Assembly (NCBI GenBank): GCA_965229705.1
Contig: OZ245922.1
Location: forward strand, 570,001 to 602,000
DNA: 32,000 bases
Source: Candidatus Saccharimonadota bacterium
GTDB lineage: Bacteria > Patescibacteriota > Gracilibacteria > BD1-5 > UBA6164
Reading direction: 5' to 3'
A program made the position numbers and the translations under genes. Below the pieces are notes generated by a model. It was given only the letters and a program-made list of their open reading frames with translations. It did no database searches and had not been told where the DNA came from. Within the stretch, counting starts at the first letter, position 1; each line of letters opens with the position of its first letter. Shown in pieces: positions 795 through 28,453 of the stretch.

Positions 795-1551
795 TTCAAC
801 TACTGCTTCTACTGCGCCTACTGATTGGAGAGCTCAAGATCCTAATTGTGACAGAGCAGATGTGACTATCTGAACACAGACGTGGGCATGATGTAACTCA
901 ACTCTGGGAACATGATTTGAATGGTGACAAACAGATGCGGATGTAGGGACAAATAATTATAGTGGATCGGTAGGTTCTTCTCAAGGTTGCTACAACTATA
1001 ACGGAAGTACTTCTTGAGTAGCTTGTACCAAGTGAGATATAACGATGGCGAGTACCTCTAAAGCCAATGCTTGGTTTACCGGAACGAATAATAATGGAGA
1101 TACTGCCGTAGATAATATATGGGGAAAGTTCTATACTTGGGATTCTCTCGATACGGATAATGATAACGATATAGATGCAGCTGATACCAATCTTGTATGT
1201 TGAGTGGGATACCATGTACCAAGTGAACTCGAATGGGAAACACTCGAAGAATACTTGAATGGATCAGCTTGTAGAACTTCATATAATAGTTACCAGTGTG
1301 ACTGACAGTGATGGAAGTACCACTCAACGACTAATAGTGATAGCAGTATTGCCGAACTCCTACAGATTCCTTTGAGTGGTCAGCGTACTAATAACACATT
1401 CTATCATCGTGGGAACTATGGGTATCTATGGTCTAGTACGGTAAATGGATCTAAGGCTTATAGGAGAGATTTTTTTTATAATAGTACCAACGTCAATAGT
1501 AACGATGTTACACAATCGAGTTGATATTCAGTCAGGTGTATCAAGGATTAG
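793..1551 (+). CDS. FISUMP-type (Fibrobacter succinogenes major paralogous, TIGR02145-like) domain, copy 1, in the +1 frame relative to 96-794
   Basis: The +1 frame is open from 748 and has no ATG at its 5' end. Translation ...DWRAQDPNCDRADVTIGTQTWAGCN...VCGVGYHVPSELEWETLEEYL...GYLWSSTVNGSKAY...SGYSVRCIKD, stop TAG 1549-1551. It is most simply read as the C-terminal part of the pilin gene after a +1 shift. Confidence 0.7.
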
Positions 1552-1560
1552 GGATTTTTG

Positions 1561-1592
1561 AACGCCGGGGTGTAGCCTGGGGTTGTTTTTTT
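1561..1592 (+). terminator. Putative intrinsic terminator after pilin-FISUMP copy 1
   Basis: aacgccgggg-tgta-gcctggggtt imperfect GC stem followed by gttttttt, 10 nt after the stop. Confidence 0.45.
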
Positions 1593-1715
1593 AAGAAGAA
1601 CTATATTCACACACAAGATTCTTTCTTGAGTCAACGAAAAAAACTCTTGTTCTATTGTATTTTCGTGAAAAAGAAGTATTTTTCTCTTGGAAAATACTTT
1701 CTTAATTATTTCTTT

Positions 1716-2408
1716 ATGAAGCCATCTTTCTTAAAAAAAACTCAGGGTTTTACTCTGGTAGAACTGATCACGGTAGTGACTATCCTTGCTGTACTTGCAG
1801 CTATAGGATTTGTCTCTTTTTCTGGTTATCTCGCAGGAGTACGAGATACCAATAGACTTTCTCAACTTACATCTATCTATGACGGTTTAGAGCTCTACGC
1901 GACAAAGTATGATCTGCCTATGCCTGATGATGCTGTAGAGATACAAGACGGATCGAGTCTCTTAGGATACCAAGGAAATATAGGAGCAAATATCCTCGAT
2001 ATCCTCGACTTTAGTCGAGGAGGTGTTGATCCCAAAGATGATTCATATTTTGTATATTATCTCTCTGCAGATAAAAGTGATTTTCAGCTTATGGCGTTTC
2101 TCGAGGAAGAACAAAATGTTCCAACGGTATTTTTTCCTCAGGCATATGCCGATAAAGACTATAGTAATCTTTATCCAGTCGTATTTGGAGAAAAGCTTGG
2201 AATACTCCTTGATGAGACAACGAAGACTCCTGTCCATGAGATAGAGGCAGTCAAGACGGCTGGAGCGTTAGATTTAGATGGAAGTACAGAGAGTTATACT
2301 GCCTACTTTAAAAATGATGATACCGCAACGGATACAGGAGAAAATCTATGAGAGACGATAGAGGAGGAGAGAGAGGAAGGGGCGAGTACTTCTGACAGTA
2401 TCGAGTAG
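1716..2408 (+). CDS. Type IV pilin-like protein, copy 2, 0-frame segment
   Basis: ATG at 1716. Translation MKPSFLKKTQGFTLVELITVVTILAVLAAIGFVSFSGYLAGVRDT... Reads through TGA 2349 and stops at TAG 2406-2408. The junction sequence is identical to copy 1. Confidence 0.75.
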
Positions 2409-3168
2409 TTCAACTACTGCTTCTACTGCGCCTACTGATTGGAGAGCTCAAGATCCTAATTGTGACAGAGCAGATGTGACTATCTGAACACAGACGTGGG
2501 CATGATGTAACTCGACGCTAGGAGCATGACTTGAGTGGTGACAAACAGATGCGGATATAGGGACGAATAACTATAGTGGAACTATATACTCTTCTCAAGG
2601 TTGTTATGATTATAATGGAAACTACATAGATACAAGTAACTGTACTGCATGAGATATAACGATGGCGAGTACCTCTAAAGCTAATGACTGGTTTACTGGA
2701 ACGAATAATAATGGAGATACTGCCGTAGATAATATATGGGGAAAGTTCTATACTTGGGATTCTCTCGATACAGATAATGATAATGATATAGACGCAGATG
2801 ATACCAATCTTGTATGTTGAGTGGGATACCATGTACCAAGTGAACTCGAATGGGAAACACTCGAAGAATACTTGAATGGATCAGCTTGTAGAACTTCATA
2901 TAATAGTTACCAGTGTGACTGACAGTGATGGAAGTACCACTCAACGACTAATAGTGATAGCAGTATTGCCGAACTCCTACAGATTCCTTTGAGTGGTCAG
3001 CGTACTAATAACACATTCTATCATCGTGGGAACTATGGGTATCTATGGTCTAGTACGGTAAATGGATCTAAGGCTTATAGGAGAGATTTTTTTTATAATA
3101 GTACCAACGTCAATAGTAACGATGTTACACAATCGAGTTGATATTCAGTCAGGTGTATAAAGGATTAG
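2407..3168 (+). CDS. FISUMP-type domain, copy 2, +1 frame
   Basis: Same architecture as 793-1551. The diverged patch (..GTIYSSQGCYDYNGNYIDTSNCTAGD..) keeps the frame open. Ends ...GYSVRCIKD with TAG 3166-3168. Confidence 0.7.
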
Positions 3169-3181
3169 GGATTTTTGAACG

Positions 3182-3210
3182 CCGGGGTGTAGCCCGGGAT
3201 TGTTTTTTTT
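3182..3210 (+). terminator. Putative intrinsic terminator after copy 2
   Basis: ccggg-gtgtag-cccgg stem followed by a T8 run. Confidence 0.4.
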
Positions 3211-3331
3211 GAGAAGAGCTATATTCATACACTACAGTCTTTGCTGAGTCAAGCAAAAATCCTGTAAGTCATTGCGTTTTCCACAAAAGGAAGTATTTTC
3301 CTCTTGAGAAATACTTCTTTAACATTTCTTT

Positions 3332-4153
3332 ATGAAGCCATCTTTCTGTAAAAACACTCAGGCCTTCACTTTCGTAGAACTCATCACCGTTATCACGATA
3401 TTAGTAGTCCTCTCGGCTATAGGATTTGTCTCTTTTTCTGGATATCTCGTATGAGTCAGAGATACAAGCAGACTCTCCCAGCTCTCCTCTCTCTATGATG
3501 GACTCGAGATTTCTCGAACAAGTTATAGTGTTCCTATGCCTGATGACGCCCTAGAAATACGAGATGGAAATACCCTCTTGTGATATCAATGAGTAGCTGG
3601 GAAAAGCGTTCTCAACTCACTGGGATTTACTAAATGATGAGTCGATCCAAAAGATGATTCTTTCTATATTTACTATCTCTCAAATACCAAAAGAGAGTTT
3701 CAGTTAATGGGATTTCTCGAAGAAGAAGAAAATGTCCCAATAGTATCCCTCCCTCAAGCATACGCAAAAGACTATTCGTCTCTCTTCCCTGTAGTATTTT
3801 GAAGGATACTATGAATCTTGTTAGACGAATCAACACAAACACCTATGCACGAAATAGAGTCTGGTGATCTCGATCTCGATGGAGACAACGATACATATAC
3901 TGCCTATTTTGAAAATGATGATATCGTAACAGATACTGGTGATGATCTTGCAGATATTATTACAGACAGGAGAACTACCACAGTAAATACTTCTTCTAGT
4001 GGTTCTTCTGGAGGTGGTTCTTCTAGCTCTTCTAGTAGTTCCAGTTCTAACCGTTATCCATGATGTGATATGGATAATATTACCGTATGAAGTTATACTA
4101 TAGCTGCGTGTAATGTATGATCGAGTACTGCAGGAACATGAACTAGTTCTTAA
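3332..4153 (+). CDS. Type IV pilin-like protein, copy 3: pilin N-terminus, Ser/Gly-rich linker and the first ~30 residues of the FISUMP-type domain in one frame
   Basis: ATG at 3332. Translation MKPSFCKNTQAFTFVELITVITILVVLSAIGFVSFSGYLVGVRDTS... ...SSSGSSGGGSSSSSSSSSSNRYPGCDMDNITVGSYTIAACNVGSSTAGTGTSS, then TAA 4151-4153. Many in-frame TGA align with GGA in copies 1/2 (for example 3452 vs 1836). Confidence 0.75.
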
Positions 4154-4637
4154 TGGAGATTATATCCAGTTTTGAAAATCAGATACGACCGTGACAAACG
4201 CAAATTTTAATCTTCATGATTGGAAATCCCCAGGATGATCAGATAAAGGTTCTGCAAATGATTGGGGAGTATATAATAATACAAAAGATAGTGCAACTTT
4301 TGCAAACTCCAGCACTGCAGATCGAGCAAAAATGCAAGGTCCGTGCGCGAGTGGATACCATGTCCCAACGAGAAAAGAGTGGGTTGATGCTCACTCAGCA
4401 GGTTGATGGTGAAGTAACGGTACGAATATGATGAACGCTCTTTATTTACCAAAAGCATGACAGAAAGACTTAACAAGCTCAATGAGTGAGGAGTGAAGCA
4501 CTTGATACTATCGATCTTCCTCACCAAATGGAAGCTATTCTCATATACTCAGTATAAAATCTTCTGGTATTTCTTTAGATGATGAAAAGAGCCTCAGATA
4601 CTTTACTTGGTCAGTTCGATGTTTTAAAGATAACTAA
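4152..4637 (+). CDS. Remainder of the FISUMP-type domain of copy 3, +1 frame
   Basis: Translation NGDYIQFGKSDTTVTNANFNLHDWKSPGGSDKGSANDWGVYNN...CASGYHVPTRKEWVDAHSAGGWGSNG...YYRSSSPNGSYSH...WSVRCFKDN, stop TAA 4635-4637. The domain is split by the frame change at 4151. Confidence 0.7.
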
Positions 4638-4805
4638 AAAAAAGTAAAGCTTCTCTTTGTCTCAAATACCGAAAAATTGTTCATAAAAAGATATATTCTG
4701 CTATACTAAAGAAGCACGGAAAAATAAGATTGGATTTTGACAATGAAATACGAAGTTTTTCCGCATTTCTCTAAGAATATATCTTTTTTCTTTTGAACTA
4801 TTCAT

Positions 4806-7229
4806 ATGCAAGAAATTTTTATCAGTATTATCAGTGTATGAGTCATACTCTATGGCTTATTATTTGTGATTCGAAAAAAAGCCTATTATACAAGAACGCT
4901 TGAGACTATCTTTTTGCGAGTGATGCTCCCAAAAAAAGAAAGTGACCTCGATACAAAAAAAGATACCTCAAAAGATTTTAAGGAAATGGTATCTCTCATG
5001 GAACAACTCCTCTCTTCCCTCAAAGCTACCTACTCACACAAAATTATCAAACGCATTCTCGGTCAAGATACTCTTTCCCTTGAATATATTGCTCATGAAA
5101 ATGAAATATTTTTTTATGTTACCTGTAGCAAACACTATAAGAAACTCATAGAAAAACAAATACACGGTTTTTATCCTGATGCGATTATCGAAGAAACAAA
5201 AGAAATAAATATTTTTGAGTGAAGAAAAGCGTTTTCTACCACCTATCTCAACACAGTAAAAAACTTTCCTTATCCTATCAAGACATACCAAAAACTCGAA
5301 AGTGATCCTATCAATAATATTGCTGGAGCATTTTCACGACTCGAAGATGATCAATCAGCCGCGATACAAATACTCCTGAAACCCATAGGAGATGACTGGC
5401 AAAATAAATCTGCAAAGATATCTAGTAGTATCATGAAGTCAAAATCCTGATACCTCACGCTTAATCCTCTCAAAATACTTATCTGACTCTTTGAAATACT
5501 TTTTCAAAGCTCAGAAAAAGACAACTCTCCAGAAGAAAATAACTCCTCAGCTCTCACGCAAGAACGAGCAAAAACCGTAGATGAAAAAGGTGATAAAACT
5601 GGATACAAAGCTATTATCAGAGTCATCACTACTGGAAATAGTGAGCAAGACACTCAAACAGAACTCAAAAATATTATCTCTAGTTTTTCACAGTTTTCTT
5701 ATCCAGATTTTAACAAGTTTACCTATACTCTCCGGCATTCTCAAAATTCTCTCATAAAAAACTATATTTATAGATACTTCACCAAACCTTTTTGGCTCAA
5801 GAAAATGATACTCAATACCGAAGAGATCGCTTCTCTCTTTCATTTTCCTCATATCAAGTACAACGAAACACCCGAGATAAAATGGCAAAACTTTAAGGTG
5901 ATCAAGGCTCCACATAATATTCCCAAAGAGTGAATCATGCTCGGACATAATGTTCATAGATGAGTCAAAAAAGAGATACGCATTAAAACCGAAGATCGTC
6001 TCCGACATATGTACGTTATCGGACAAACAGGAACGGGGAAATCAACAATTATGCTCTCTATGGCAAAACAAGACTTTTACTCTTGAGATGGTGTTGCGAT
6101 TATGGATCCTCATGGAGACCTCATCAAAGATGTACTTCCATGGATACCTCGAGAAAGAGCTGATGATGTGATAGTCTTTGATCCCTCTGATGAAGAAAGA
6201 CCTATCGGTCTAAATCTCCTTGAAGCAGAACCAGAAGAACGTGATATGGTCGCGCAGGATGCAAATAATATGATGATCAAACTTTTCTGAAATGAGATTT
6301 TTGGTCCCAGACTCCAAGACTATTTTCTCAATGGATGTCTGACGCTCATGGAGTACCCGCAATGAGGAGCTCTTACAGATATTATTCGTCTCTTTACTGA
6401 TGATGATTTCCAAAAAGATCATGTTCGTAATGTTAAAAATCCTATTGTAAAAGCTTGGTGGGAAAAAACATTTGCCAATATGGGACAACGAGAAAAACAA
6501 GAGATTATCCCCTACTTTGCGGCAAAATTTTCAGGATTTATTACCAATAAAATGATGCGAAATATTATCGGACAAACAAAAAGCTCTTTTAATATCACCG
6601 ACTGTATGCAGAGTAATAAGATCCTGCTACTCAATCTCTCAAAAGGTCTTGTATGAGACCTCAACTCAAAACTCTTAGGAATGATCATCGTCAGTAAGAT
6701 ACAAACTGCAGCAATGCAAAGACAACGAATGACGAAACAAGAAAGACAAGACTTCTTCCTCTATATCGATGAGTTTCAAAACTATGTCACTCCGAGTATT
6801 GAGTCGATACTTTCCGAGGCTCGAAAATATCGCCTTGGTCTGGTACTTGCACATCAGTATCTTGGTCAACTTGAGCAATCTGACGCACTTACAAAATCGA
6901 GTCTCGATCTCAAAAAGGCAATTTTCGGAAATGTGGGAACCGTGATGAGTTATAAAATATGACCTGAAGATGGAGAGTTTATGGCAAAATATTTTCAGCC
7001 AAAAGTTTCTGATGCTGATCTCATAAATATGGATAAGTTTAAATGAGTTATGAAACTTGCTATTGATAACCAACCAACAACTCCCTTCTCTATTATTCCT
7101 GAAAATCCGTATCTTGATGCATGAGATCCAAAAATTGCCAAAGCTCTCATAGAACTCTCAAGACTCAAGTATGGGAGAGATAAAGTATTTGTGAGTAAAG
7201 AAATCGAATATCGCATATGAGTCATGTAG
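4806..7229 (+). CDS. VirD4/TraG/TraD-family (type IV secretion coupling protein-like) P-loop ATPase with N-terminal TM helix
   Basis: 807 codons, uninterrupted with TGA=Gly (checked codon by codon over 5220-6104). N-terminal helix ISIISVGVILYGLLFVI. Walker A VIGQTGTGKST, IMDPHGDL, Walker B-like FFLYIDEFQNY, and LVLAHQYLGQL (TraG-D_C-like). Stop TAG 7227-7229. Confidence 0.8.
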
Positions 7230-7840
7230 CACACCAAGAACTCAGAGAAAAGATTATTGCATACTTTCCTGCTGAGTCGCTCTCCTACTTCCCGGAAAAT
7301 ACGCTGGAGTATCTCCTCAGCGGAGAGATTATTTTTGGTCACTTGATAGAGTGAGAAAATATAGATAGTAGCGCTATGATTTTTGAATACCAAAAAGCTC
7401 TTGATGAAATGCTGGAACTGTATGTTGTTCAACCTTTTCGTCATGAGTTTCGACTTCAGTATTCTTGAGGTATTCCTATACATAATACTGCTTCTCATCT
7501 TGAAAAGTCTCTCTGTCTTGTGGTAGAAAAAAACTATCGTCTGAGTTTTGGGAGGTTTTATGAGGTTCTAGGGCGTATAAGTGAGATATCCAAAAATATA
7601 TGAGTGTATGAAAGTTGACTCAGAGACTTTCTCACAGTATGAACTTTAGAAAAAATACTTGTAAAAAGCCATTTTTGAAAACATCTTGCATCTCTGATAG
7701 AGAGCTGAGTTATGAATGAAAAAAGGCACTCATGAGTCTTGAGTTTTGATGAAGCTCTGAAAGCAAGAAAAAGTATATGTGGAAATTTTGAGAATCCAGA
7801 TTCTCTCTTATACTTGCTCGCAAGTACGCAGATACTATAA
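7217..7840 (+). CDS. Hypothetical protein (207 aa), start overlaps the coupling-ATPase stop by 13 nt
   Basis: ATG at 7217, TAA at 7838-7840, open with TGA=Gly. No recognisable motif. The 167-aa antisense ORF in the track (6995-7498) is rejected in favour of this frame. Confidence 0.55.
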
Positions 7841-7903
7841 CATAGTGCTATCTTCTTGAAAAACTGCTTCTATCCAGTGAAAATATACTCTTAATGTATT
7901 ACT

Positions 7904-8347
7904 ATGAAAATCCTTCTTTTTTTCCCTGCTATTGCCTACCTCGCACTTCTCATCATCAATCTTGAGATATTTTCTGCAAGCACAGAGATAAACTTTTTCT
8001 GGCTTTTGAGTTTCCAGATACCAGTGGTAATATTTATCTCTCTTTTTTTTATTCTTTATATATTGCTTATTTGGGCAGGATTTAACTTTTCACATGTATT
8101 TTCAAATATAAAAACTCGCAAACTCGAAAAAGAGGTGTTTGATCTAAAAACAAAGCTCCTAAACCGTCAGTGAGAACTCGTGAAGGATATAGAAGAAGTA
8201 TTCTCAAAAAAGCTCAGTGACTTTAAGACTGAGTCTGATAAAAAGCTCGAACTCACCAAAAAAGAAACAACAAAAATTGTTTCTCAAATGGAATATCAGT
8301 TTCAAAGTCTCAAAGAAAAGATGCAAGAACTCTGAAAGAAGAAGTAG
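7904..8347 (+). CDS. Small membrane protein with two N-terminal TM helices and a C-terminal charged coiled-coil (LapA/DUF1049-like topology)
   Basis: ATG at 7904, reads through TGA at 8171 and 8333, stops at TAG 8345-8347. Translation MKILLFFPAIAYLALLIINLE...ILLIWAGFNF... followed by a K/E-rich tail. Confidence 0.65.
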
Positions 8348-10667: not shown

Positions 10668-10688
10668 TGGAGCGGGGGACCAGGTTTG
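10668..10688 (-). repeat. 21-nt direct repeat of the 3' end of tRNA-Gly(UCA) (att-like scar)
   Basis: tggagcgggggaccaggtttg is identical at 10668-10688 and 10877-10897. Weaker similarity continues a few nt further (gtgt). Confidence 0.75.
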
Positions 10689-10837
10689 CCTCTTACACTA
10701 CAATCCCCTATCAGGGATTGTAGCTCCAGTAGGGCACTCGGTGATTGCTCCTTTTCGTCGCAATCAATTTTCATCTTTGCGCTACGCGCAGACTGAAAAT
10801 CAGAGCCTCACTTCAAACCTGATCTCATTTCAGAGAA

Positions 10838-10862
10838 ATAAAAAAGCACCACATCCGTGGTA
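10838..10862 (-). terminator. Putative terminator just 3' of the tRNA
   Basis: The minus strand reads taccac-ggat-gtggtg followed by ctttttt. Confidence 0.45.
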
Positions 10863-10876
10863 CTCTTTGATTTCTC

Positions 10877-10955
10877 TGGAGCGGGGGACCAGGTTTGAAC
10901 TGGCACACCCAAGGGTTGAAGCCTTAGTACACTCACTCTTTTATGTTACCCCCGC
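10877..10955 (-). tRNA. tRNA-Gly with anticodon UCA (reads UGA), CCA encoded
   Basis: Minus-strand sequence GCGGGGGTAACATAAAAGAGTGAGTGTACTAAGGCTTCAACCCTTGGGTGTGCCAGTTCAAACCTGGTCCCCCGCTCCA. 7-bp acceptor stem, T arm GCCAG/TTCAAAC/CTGGT, anticodon loop CUUCAAC. Bacterial Gly identity set G1:C72, C2:G71, G3:C70, U73. Confidence 0.85.
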
Positions 10956-11060
10956 AAAATGTAGCCAATGAAGTATATAAGCCAGAGAAAACGAGTCAAA
11001 TTTATTTTACTCTCCGAAAAAGCAAGGTATCATACAAGCAAGTAATTTTTATAAAAAAAT

Positions 11061-11807
11061 ATGAGCCTGCAATTTATTGTTTCTATCTTTGAACAATTTC
11101 TCCAAACAAGTTATACCTATTTTGAACTGCTCGCACCAAAGATGATTGCCGCGACAATCATACTTGTTTTTTGAGCAATTATCTCCTACGCAATATATAG
11201 GTTCTCTATGTATGTTTTTTGGAAGTTTGGCATTGTCGAACTCATCAATAGTCTCTGGGAATGATTTGAAGAAAATACTACAAAAATTGTCGATAAAACA
11301 CTCGACGATAACAAAGAAAAAACCGAAACAAGTACACAAATATCACCAAAGCAAGAAAGTAAAAAAATTCGATATGACCGAATCATCTCAAAATCTCTCT
11401 CCTACTATATCTTCCTCCTCTTTTTTCGCTGGGCAATCGTAGTGCTAGGGATTAGCGAAATAGAGAAATTTATGAGTGATCTCATAGGATACCTGCCAAA
11501 TCTCTTTATTGGTGTGATTATTTGATTTTTTTGAGTGCGTTTTGCGAACTCTGTTCACGATATCATCTACCAGGCTCTCGAACTCACCAAAGATAAAACA
11601 TCGAAGATCATTGCCATGTGAGCCAAGATCATCATCATGTTTTTTACCCTGATGATTATGCTTAACTATATCCAAATCGTTGACGAGTTTATTATCAACT
11701 CCCTCTTCCTCGGTTTCATCACGACACTCACTATCTCTCTTGGACTCTCTTTTGGACTCGGAGGAAAAGACATTGCAAGGCAAATATTAGAAAGTTTTCG
11801 TAAATAA
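11061..11807 (+). CDS. Multi-pass membrane protein with 'conserved TM helix' repeats (MscS-related N-terminal type)
   Basis: ATG at 11061, TAA at 11805-11807. Translation ...APKMIAATIILVFGAIISYAIYRF... and ...LPNLFIGVIIGFFGVRFANSVHDIIYQAL..., separated by a K/E-rich linker. The alternative frames in the track (11146-11442 +, 11445-11783 -) fall in low-complexity sequence. Confidence 0.7.
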
Positions 11808-26343: not shown

Positions 26344-28209
26344 CTACTCAAAAGCAAAGCTTGTCACAGGTTTAGCATATAAAGAATTTGTTGTTGTTCC
26401 ATCTCCCAATTGTCCATAATCATTTCTTCCCCAGCAATATACTGAGGAATCTTCTAAGATAGCACAGCCTCCATTTAGACCTGCAGATATTTTTACGGCT
26501 GTAGTGATATTCGTTCCATCCTCAAACTGCACATTTACCGGATCACTGACTCGGGTCGTGGTGCTTCCATTTCCAAGTTGTCCACTAGAGCCTTTTCCCC
26601 ATACCTTTACTTCTCCATTTGACTGAAGGGCTATTGAGTGGTTTTCTCCAAGCGCAATATCAATAGGATCAACCAGTGGCACGGTATACCAGCTCGATAC
26701 TCGCTCTGTTGTATTGCTATCCTTCCCCGTTTGATAGTTAGAATTATACCCTGCACACTTTACCTGAGCAGAGGTTGTGAGGATACAGGTATGATAGCCA
26801 TATCCACTATCAACTTTTGCTATGCTTCTTGTGATATATGTTGGGCTGGAGAGTTTTTGGTCTGTGGTTCCTCTTCCAAATCTTCCATTATCCCAACCCC
26901 AACAATAGAGATATCCACTCGTAGTGATGTAGCACCCAGATCTTTGCGACATAGAGAGTTGCTGTATACTTGTGGACATTGATGAAATATATACTGGTGT
27001 GTTTTGCTGACTGGTCTTACCTGGAATATCATAGTAACTCGAACTATATCCTGAACAATACACTTTTCCGTCTGAGTCTCTAATAGCACACATGGTATTG
27101 CTTCCAACATCAAAGTCTCTGATCAGTTCTCCATCGAGATATTCAGTATCAAATGTATCAACTATAGTACTTGAAGAAGTTTCTAAGCCAAAAATTCCGT
27201 TTACCCCCCTTCCCCACATACGAAGCTTCTTATCTGTTCCAAGAGCAAAAGCCGTATTATAAATCAATTGGAGTTTTGTCACATCTTTCACAGAAAATGC
27301 TGTCGGAGTGGTGATAGGTGAGCTCGTATCCCCTGGAGCAATCGCAAGTTGTGTATAATTGTTTTGTCCAGCACAATAGAGGTCTCCATTATACTTTTGA
27401 AAACAGTTGGAATATGTTCCAGACATAAGGTTTTCTGCAAATAAATCAACCGTTTGAAGAGTAATTTTTTTGCCATTTCACCAAGCTTCATGACCAGAAA
27501 ATGAATACTCAGAAGCAAAAACCTCCGTATCTGGAGCAGTAATATTTACGACAACCTCTGTGGGAGATTTTGAAATATATTCCACTACATATCCATCTGC
27601 CTCAAGACCTTCTAAAACATCAGCAGGAGTAAACCCAACTCCACTTATAGTAATACTTTTTGTTTCAGAAACCTTGAGCTGCTCGTCTATACTGCTGGTA
27701 AGATACGGATATACTTCTCTTGGTGGGGCAATGTAATTTCCCGTATCAGAGAGAAACTTGTCTCCTCCGCCATCTGTGATTATCTGTGAAGCATCTGCCT
27801 TGAGATCTAAGTAAGCATCTGTTTCTGCTTGTGTATAATACATTGACAAGTCAGTCCCTTCTATCACTGGCGTAAGTATCTTATTGGAACTAACATCTAA
27901 TTCCACCGTATAATCAAGCTTGTTTGTGTCTTTGATCAGATCTCCCTCTTGATAATTTGTGAGGTCAATATTCGCAATATCAACATCAATATCAGCGTAT
28001 ATCGTATCTTGTTTGAGGCTCAGTTGCTGATCAACATAGAGAAAATCAACCTTGGTATCAATATAGTCGATGAGCTCATTCCATTTGGTAAAACTGAGAA
28101 TATCTCCGTCTTCTGCTTCGAGACCTATCCAGGCAGAAACATGAACGGCTCAAATAGTCAGTGCTGTAAGGCTCAAAAAGAGCAGAAAGAAGTTTTTTAT
28201 GTGTTTCAT
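26344..28209 (-). CDS. Secreted surface protein: shared N-terminal module + stalk-like segment + RCC1-repeat beta-propeller
   Basis: Translation MKHIKNFFLLFLSLTALTIGAVHVSAWIGLEAEDGDILSFTKWNELIDYIDTKVDFLYVDQQ...YYTQAETDAYLDLKAD..., then RCC1-like repeats (LYCAGQNNYTQLA, MWGRGVNGIFG, LYCWGWDNGRFGRG, VKVWGKGSSGQLGNG, VYCWGRNDYGQLGDG). 621 aa, stop TAG 26346-26344. Confidence 0.85.
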
Positions 28210-28453
28210 TATAACAAATAAAGAAGTAATGTAGTATACTCATTTGAAAATCAAAAAACGATTCAAAGAAGAATGTATAGAAAAATACAAAAAAGTGAAA
28301 TTTTTTACAGATAATTTTTTCAGTTTTTTCTTGTATTTACAGAGGGAAAAATTGTCAGGAAAAAATAAGTTCAAAGGTCAATCTCATTTTCTTGAAAAAA
28401 TACTTCCCCATATGATATGCTACTGGTGTATATATTTTTAAACATTTGCAAAA

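Follow-up and report, generated by a model that had tools for sequence, protein, structure and literature searches.

The window, by which we mean the whole 32-kb stretch of DNA that was analysed, contains a single tRNA gene, which lies on the minus strand at 10877-10955 and is referred to below as tRNA-Gly(UCA). ARAGORN calls it as a 79-nt tRNA with the anticodon tca at position 37, and labels it 'SeC' because of the anticodon alone. The Rfam model RF00005 scores it at 44.5 bits (E = 2.3e-08) in a local scan of 451 bases (10700-11150), above the gathering score of 29. When the whole 32-kb window was scanned with default filters no tRNA was returned and the gene was missed, and filtered pipelines could therefore overlook the recoding tRNA. 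The features of the gene and its surroundings are as follows (window coordinates).

10877-10955 (-): tRNA-Gly(UCA) gene, 79 nt including an encoded CCA (ARAGORN, RF00005)
10949-10955 (-): acceptor stem, 5' strand GCGGGGG, pairing with 10887-10881 (CCCCCGC)
Positions 8-9 of the tRNA (-): UA, read from the sequence
10929-10946 (-): D arm, stem ACAU/GUGU with the 10-nt loop AAAAGAGUGA, which has no GG
10928 (-): linker, a single unpaired purine (A) between D stem and anticodon helix
10909-10927 (-): anticodon arm, helix CUAAGG/CCUUGG and loop CUUCAAC (ARAGORN)
10919-10917 (-): anticodon UCA, in the 7-nt loop C-U-UCA-A-C with U33
10905-10908 (-): variable region GUGU, 4 nt (AGGU in family f3)
10888-10904 (-): T arm, stem GCCAG/CUGGU with G49.U65, loop UUCAAAC
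10880 (-): discriminator U73
10879-10877 (-): CCA, encoded
10972-10999 (-): promoter-like TTGACT-16 nt-TATACT, 10 of 12 positions matching the consensus (a consensus match only)
10841-10868 (-): terminator-like hairpin and U run directly after the gene, inside a 188-nt insert
10668-10688 (-): direct repeat, exact over 21 nt, of the stretch from T loop to CCA at the 3' end of the tRNA, lying 188 nt beyond the gene

The initial annotation had described a cloverleaf with the loop C-U-UCA-A-C, an encoded CCA and the acceptor set G1:C72, C2:G71, G3:C70 and U73, and had proposed that a tRNA finder be run; every one of these details is present in the sequence, ARAGORN accepts the 79-nt tRNA with the anticodon UCA, and RF00005 places it above the gathering score. 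The D stem is formed by A10-U25, C11-G24, A12-U23 and U13.G22, and the anticodon helix by C:G, U.G, A-U, A-U, G-C and G-C, with an extra nucleotide located between D stem and anticodon loop. In tRNAs, G18-G19 of the D loop are conserved and pair with Psi55-C56 of the T loop; the T loop of tRNA-Gly(UCA), UUCAAAC, is canonical, and its D loop, AAAAGAGUGA, has no GG. Upstream of the gene, the second hexamer of the promoter-like sequence ends 17 nt before the tRNA 5' end, leaving 16 nt between them.

Glycine identity and the reading of UGA

The host genome is a single contig of 1,006,762 bp (35% G+C, 96.7% complete) in which open reading frames appear as short fragments under table 11 and become long when TGA is read through, with up to 23 in-frame TGAs each. 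When RpoD, DnaG and RsmF were aligned with solved homologues, 14 of the 22 aligned in-frame TGA sites faced glycine and none faced tryptophan. The glycine-facing sites include the Toprim E-G and primase D-x-A-G motifs, the P-G-G-K and P-G-G motifs of the methyltransferase, and two invariant glycines of sigma region 3. In 560 long ORFs, which together represent 74% of the genome, 24.7 of every 1000 codons are TGA. It accounts for 36% of glycine codons and is the commonest of them, followed by GGA (23.4), GGT (10.9), GGG (6.4) and GGC (2.4 per 1000 codons). All 560 ORFs end in TAA or TAG. A profile search of the one contig (96.7% complete) did not find RF2 (prfB). The sole class-I release factor is prfA (458 bits, above cut-off), and the prfB model reaches only 269 bits, on the prfA gene itself. 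Since RF2 is missing, tRNA-Gly(UCA) faces no termination competition at UGA, and the earlier suggestion that the tRNA competes with termination does not apply here. Earlier work describes UGA as a glycine codon in these lineages (PMC8629427, PMC3812714), and for BD1-5 proteomic data support this (PMC4032931).

ARAGORN finds 37 tRNAs in the host genome, including one tRNA-Gly(UCC), one tRNA-Trp(CCA) and tRNA-Gly(UCA). The one tRNA-Gly(UCC), which carries C32, must serve all four GGN codons, while over a third of the glycine codons fall to the one tRNA-Gly(UCA) gene. As side observations, the host tRNA(UCG) combines A73 with a D loop of arginine type (CGA and CGG occur at 7.9 and 1.1 per 1000 codons), and in-frame TGA is found within the window in an 830-aa protein with a TrwB/VirD4-type coupling-protein domain (4737-7229, +) and a 676-aa protein with RCC1 repeats (26344-28374, -).

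The acceptor end of tRNA-Gly(UCA) (GCGGGGG, U73, CCA) closely follows that of tRNA-Gly(UCC) in the same genome (GCGGGUG, U73), the two having GCGGG.G in common, and tRNA-Trp(CCA) carries the acceptor AGGCCCA with G73. The two glycine tRNAs agree at six of the seven acceptor pairs, in U73 and the encoded CCA, in G49.U65 and in C32-U33-U34-C35. They differ in the remainder of the molecule. The tRNA-Gly(UCC) is a canonical tRNA of 77 nt: its D arm has G10-C25 and a loop with GG, its anticodon stem has 5 bp and is flanked by A26/G44, its variable loop has 5 nt, and position 38 is A. G1:C72, C2:G71, G3:C70 and U73, which were used as the acceptor criterion in PMC8629427, are all found in tRNA-Gly(UCA) and are invariant in the host's own order and in a second recoded order (f14, see below). 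Pairs 4-7 change with compensation, pair 4 covarying between G-C and A-U among tRNA-Gly(UCA) orthologues. To judge from the alignments, invariance of pairs 1-3 and U73 next to covarying pairs 4-7 is the pattern that would be expected of identity elements. The consensus glycine set also includes C36 and G10-Y25 (PMC9976931); tRNA-Gly(UCA) has neither and carries A36 and A10-U25 instead.

The host has a dimeric GlyRS at 311894-313282 of the genome, matched by TIGR00389 at 472 bits in three in-frame pieces that contain five TGAs; glyQ was not found in the host genome, the only GlyRS found being the dimeric one. The initial annotation had assigned a bacterial GlyRS identity set to the tRNA. The U73-type set is indeed present, and the enzyme is the dimeric GlyRS of TIGR00389 and not the alpha2-beta2 GlyQS. 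We propose that the dimeric GlyRS would charge tRNA-Gly(UCA) with glycine through its acceptor end, tolerating A36 in place of C36, and that the charged tRNA would then decode UGA by full Watson-Crick pairing.

With TGA facing glycine, RF2 absent, and acceptor and discriminator matching those of tRNA-Gly(UCC), the earlier identification of the molecule as a UGA-decoding tRNA-Gly(UCA) is upheld. We consider the gene at 10877-10955 (-) to be the single-copy, dedicated UGA-decoding tRNA-Gly(UCA) of code-25 Gracilibacteria (BD1-5/GN02-type), with a probability of roughly 0.9. It is the same molecule as the table 25 decoder reported for Gracilibacteria (Rinke et al. 2013, as cited in PMC8629427; Hanke et al. 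2014, PMC4032931), the gene itself showing no differences. Two other identities have a negligible probability. A tRNA-Trp(UCA) in a genome using code 4, with UGA as tryptophan, would fit the opening of the frames, which follows from reading TGA as any amino acid; it is refuted at the sequence level by the alignments (0 of 22 TGA sites facing Trp and 14 of 22 facing Gly) and by the identity elements, namely the glycine-type acceptor with U73, not G73, and the presence of a separate tRNA-Trp(CCA) with G73. A selenocysteine tRNA, as in the ARAGORN label, would account for the UCA anticodon and for the C:G pair by which the anticodon stem is lengthened, a feature also of Aquifex tRNA-Sec (PMC3711452), and is refuted by anatomy: acceptor and T stems are 7/5 and not the bacterial 8/5, the variable region is 4 nt with no long extra arm, and the D arm has 4 bp and a 10-nt loop rather than 6 bp and a 4-nt loop. 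A frequency of 25 UGA per 1000 codons likewise speaks against selenocysteine.

The tRNA-Gly(UCA) gene is thus the physical basis of genetic code 25 in the host genome, and finding it tells annotators to translate TGA as glycine, as otherwise nearly every gene breaks.

Form and conservation of the tRNA body

The 79-nt gene aligns without gaps in the loci of 38 relatives at 84-100% identity, and ARAGORN recognises it at all 38. Eight of the sampled relatives, seven from the host's genus and one from a genus next to it, match the host at 100% over the full 79 nt. A pattern search that fixed only GCG, UUCAA, the T loop and CGCU was run on 401 genomes of the class, and it recovered the 79-nt form from 61 of 64 sampled genomes of the host's own order, with three families represented. 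Exact copies of the 5' 47 nt are present in at least 118 named species-level genomes, which places the host among the Gracilibacteria in the narrow sense (BD1-5/GN02). Among these genomes are HOT-871 (CP017714.1), GN02-872, UBA6164 and Candidatus Altimarinus. The gene must therefore be regarded as already known; it and UGA recoding have been known since 2013. For the unusual body, we found no mention in the searchable literature.

Among 17 distinct orthologues, compensatory changes back each of the four helices, and over the 22 pairs 99.5% of cells are paired. Seven helix pairs change on both sides, and the observed covariation score is reached in 0 of 500 shuffles. The D stem covaries (A-U to G-C, A-U to U-A), as does the third anticodon-stem pair (A-U/G-C), and three T-stem pairs show compensatory changes. 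The weak D arm of the initial annotation is real, its ACAU/GUGU stem with U.G covarying and its GG-less loop being conserved. Linker, helix and the GG-less D-loop arrangement are fixed across the order; the linker purine at 10928, an A, is replaced by G in a single relative, G326. tRNA-Trp(CCA), compared in 25 relatives as a control, showed 23 distinct sequences at 76-93% identity, with 26:44 unpaired in 19; as it is far more variable, the rigidity is specific to tRNA-Gly(UCA). This extreme conservation shows that linker, extra pair and D loop are under constraint, whichever function may impose it. The conserved odd body is real.

Within the host genome the body stands apart. Of 29 tRNAs whose layout could be parsed from ARAGORN output, 19 combine a 1-nt linker with a 5-bp anticodon stem and nine have no linker and six pairs; linker and 6-bp stem occur together in one of the 29, tRNA-Gly(UCA). 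As 26:44 is pairable in nine of 29 ordinary host tRNAs, what is unique is the extra nucleotide and not the sixth pair as such. The gene is also the only one of the 37 host tRNAs that has no GG in the D region.

While the presence of these letters is plain, their pairing can be drawn in two ways. ARAGORN draws an anticodon helix of 6 bp, and the RF00005 model draws a 5-bp stem with a bulged U. Nearest-neighbour energies are -26.1 kcal/mol for the cloverleaf with the 6-bp helix and -21.3 kcal/mol for the 5-bp stem with the bulged U, the 6-bp helix being favoured by 3-5 kcal/mol over the alternatives. The reading predicted to be most stable is thus an uninterrupted anticodon helix of 6 bp beneath an unpaired purine. 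The extra anticodon-stem pair, on whose conservation the initial annotation had made its reading depend, is conserved: the top two pairs of the helix, C:G and U.G, are present in 61 of 61 order-level matches. Because these columns never vary, covariation is unable to prove the two extra pairs. Of the earlier claim of a 6-bp anticodon helix with a 4-nt variable region, then, the letters are all present and energy favours the helix, and covariation cannot separate it from a 5-bp stem with a bulge. The latter would be a canonical 5-bp anticodon stem with C27:G43 on top, one flipped-out U, a 5-nt variable loop and no sixth pair. It agrees with the alignment by the Rfam covariance model, bacterial tRNA-Sec offers documented cases of bulged, flipped-out anticodon-stem bases (PMC3711452), and an arm of normal length would suit the ribosome with no further adjustment. 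Set against the lower energy of the continuous helix and the 6 bp drawn by ARAGORN, we hold this form to be a serious possibility with the odds somewhat against it.

The unconstrained minimum free energy fold of tRNA-Gly(UCA) (-26.2 kcal/mol, z-score only -1.0 versus shuffles) is not a cloverleaf, the D/anticodon region being refolded. This is because ACAU (10946-10943) can pair with the variable-region GUGU (10908-10905), which is identical to the 3' strand of the D stem, and does so equally well. The pairing is kept in family f3 (GCUU with AGGU) and broken in relative G326, and the non-cloverleaf fold was dropped on the ground that this relative breaks the alternative helix.

Some of these features recall other stop-codon readers. 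In tRNA-Sec and tRNA-Pyl (PMC3711452, PMC7609411) a sixth anticodon-stem pair is likewise present (C26:G44 in Aquifex tRNA-Sec), and tRNA-Pyl shares the absence of G18-G19. They differ in that their sixth pair is 26:44, with no extra nucleotide, and tRNA-Gly(UCA) differs from them in its 7/5 acceptor and T stems, its short variable loop and normal elongation. The parallel is weak because 26:44 is pairable in nine of 29 ordinary host tRNAs, which likewise weakens the idea that stop-codon decoders are marked out by anticodon stems of 6 bp.

Among the families of the class, in-frame TGA in rpoD was found only in the host's own order, in the second recoded order f14 (2-15 TGAs) and in one f27 genome, and in no other family of the class. 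Representatives of f3, f14 and f27 lack RF2, which the non-recoded control G072 has. The order f14 uses a 74-nt tRNA(UCA), found in 62 of 71 genomes. It agrees with the 79-nt form in the anticodon UCA, in G1:C72, C2:G71, G3:C70 and U73, in A10-U25, U13.G22, a 10-nt D loop and C38, and in six stacked pairs in the anticodon helix; 26:44 is A-U in 12 and G-C in eight of 20 distinct sequences and is never broken. It differs in having no linker, a 3-nt remainder of the variable loop, a D loop (AAUUGGUGUA) that contains GG, G37 instead of A37 (the anticodon loop being C/A-U-UCA-G-C), and no encoded CCA. Six pairs above the anticodon loop are therefore present in both recoded orders, and the extra nucleotide and GG-less loop only in the Gracilibacteria form. 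The comparison with other code-25 tRNA-Gly(UCA) genes that the initial annotation had called for thus gives a divided answer, the oddities being kept in the own order and absent from the second. Since f14 decodes UGA with a GG-bearing tRNA of ordinary length, the oddities are not required for decoding UGA as glycine.

In the 401 genomes of the class, the G37 form of glycine-type tRNA(UCA) was found in f14, and the A37 form only in the host's own order and in one other genome, G053, which belongs to another family. The G053 gene (C1:4485-4561) encodes a 77-nt tRNA(UCA) with the glycine acceptor set, the loop AUUCAAC and two nucleotides between D stem and anticodon stem. This genome keeps RF2 (464 bits), and no in-frame TGA was seen in its rpoD, its release factor genes or three neighbouring genes; its tRNA(UCA) may act as a natural suppressor of UGA or represent a step on the way to recoding. 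A further genome, G081 (f27), is recoded: in-frame TGAs number 16 in rpoD and 14 in prfA, and RF2 is absent. A pattern search of its assembly (50 contigs, 93% complete) returned no glycine-type tRNA(UCA).

Possible roles of the body in decoding

Anticodon-stem length and hinge affect the reading of UGA by tRNA-Trp (PMC13092985), and work on tRNA-Trp with a 4-bp anticodon stem has recently reopened the question of how UGA and UGG are discriminated (PMC13092985). In the 4-bp-stem tRNA-Trp(CCA) and in the Hirsh G24A and A9C suppressors (PMC13092985), distant changes in stem, D arm and hinge alter UGA versus UGG discrimination, and it is in this respect that tRNA-Gly(UCA) may be likened to them. 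In the tRNA-Trp variants, however, the stem is shortened or loosened and near-cognate decoding is relaxed, whereas tRNA-Gly(UCA) is cognate and its helix is longer, and any effect of the longer helix on fidelity is conjecture.

MnmG was not found in the host genome, and for that reason U34 of tRNA-Gly(UCA) is probably not xm5-modified. MiaA is present, and A37 may accordingly carry i6A.

One reading, at slightly less than an even chance, is that the oddities of shape are a frozen accident of the lineage, or serve charging or processing (for example by offsetting the lost C36 and G10), and have no part in codon discrimination. It is favoured by the second recoded order, where the tRNA that reads UGA is 74 nt long, carries G37 and a normal GG, and lacks the linker, and by the absence of C36 and G10-Y25 of the consensus glycine set (PMC9976931). 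A near-invariant molecule is, moreover, what would be expected of a single-copy tRNA serving 2.5% of codons. What it must contend with is that the extreme conservation spans the linker, the extra pair and the D loop, while tRNA-Trp drifts to 76-93%.

A role in fidelity is suggested by analogy, as mutations of stem length and hinge in tRNA-Trp alter the reading of UGA (PMC13092985). Our best guess at the role of the body, though with a probability well below even, is that the altered hinge and elbow of tRNA-Gly(UCA) might tune the behaviour in the A site of a U34 that is probably not xm5-modified, giving efficient reading of UGA with no wobble onto UGG (Trp) or UGY (Cys). Still more doubtful is a specific version of it, in which the extra nucleotide with the sixth pair, the hinge purine and the GG-less D loop would act as a joint fidelity device in a cell that lacks MnmG-type modification of U34, the 74-nt form solving the same problem through a Watson-Crick 26:44 pair and G37. 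If true, the device would invert the case of tRNA-Trp(CCA), in which a shortened anticodon stem brings about the reading of UGA. The converse idea, that the tRNA-Trp(CCA) of these genomes has a conserved extended stem that keeps it off UGA, was rejected, as 26:44 is unpaired in 19 of 25 relatives.

Whichever of these readings holds, tRNA-Gly(UCA) is near-invariant in an order in which tRNA-Trp drifts freely. Together with the load carried by a single gene and an odd body that is missing in the other recoded order, this provides a clean natural pair for studying the distant control of UGA/UGG discrimination.

The insert and structured module behind the gene

Directly behind tRNA-Gly(UCA) lies a 188-nt insert (window 10668-10876, -), which is closed by the exact 21-nt repeat of the tRNA 3' end and is absent from the loci of 29 relatives; insert and repeat are the local difference between the host and the known table 25 tRNA-Gly(UCA) of Gracilibacteria. 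The terminator at about 10630-10600, after the repeat, is the one that lies directly behind the tRNA in relatives (ancestral). Most of the insert is taken up by a three-hairpin module of about 115 nt (insert nt ~61-188), in which 17 of 29 pairs show compensatory changes among 10 copies from three genomes. The insert has no Rfam match.

Further copies of the module are found in the host genome at C1:884025-884560 (after tRNA-Met), 118540-118880 and 603220-603380, and in relatives at L176 (G006) and at L177, L179, L181, L183 and L184 (G022). Directly after each copy come about 21 nt from the 3' end of a tRNA, with CCA as the last letters. These ends derive from Gly-UCA, Met (three tandem 168-nt units), His, Lys and, in two relatives, others. 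The His copy comprises two units 36.6 kb from the tRNA-His gene, and the Lys copy lies 7 kb from the tRNA-Lys gene. The module has the look of a conserved terminus shared by a family of elements that integrate into tRNA T loops, mini versions with no cargo among them.

A 7-kb element occupies the interval between the tRNA-Lys(UUU) gene and the module with the tRNA-Lys 3' repeat (C1:602001-611000, at about 1220-8270). It encodes a 548-aa large serine recombinase (Resolvase and Recombinase domains), the ORF of which runs into the tRNA-Lys(UUU) gene on the opposite strand, a BglII-like endonuclease and a C5 DNA methylase (a restriction-modification pair), and three unassigned proteins. No tyrosine integrase was found near the 188-nt insert, the one tyrosine recombinase of the genome being located at 451.8 kb, and no TnpB was found in the host genome. 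In a genome of another genus (L021, G019), a 128-nt tandem duplication of the last 21 nt of tRNA-Gly(UCA) with its flank lies 107 nt after the tRNA, and differs from the 188-nt insert of the host.
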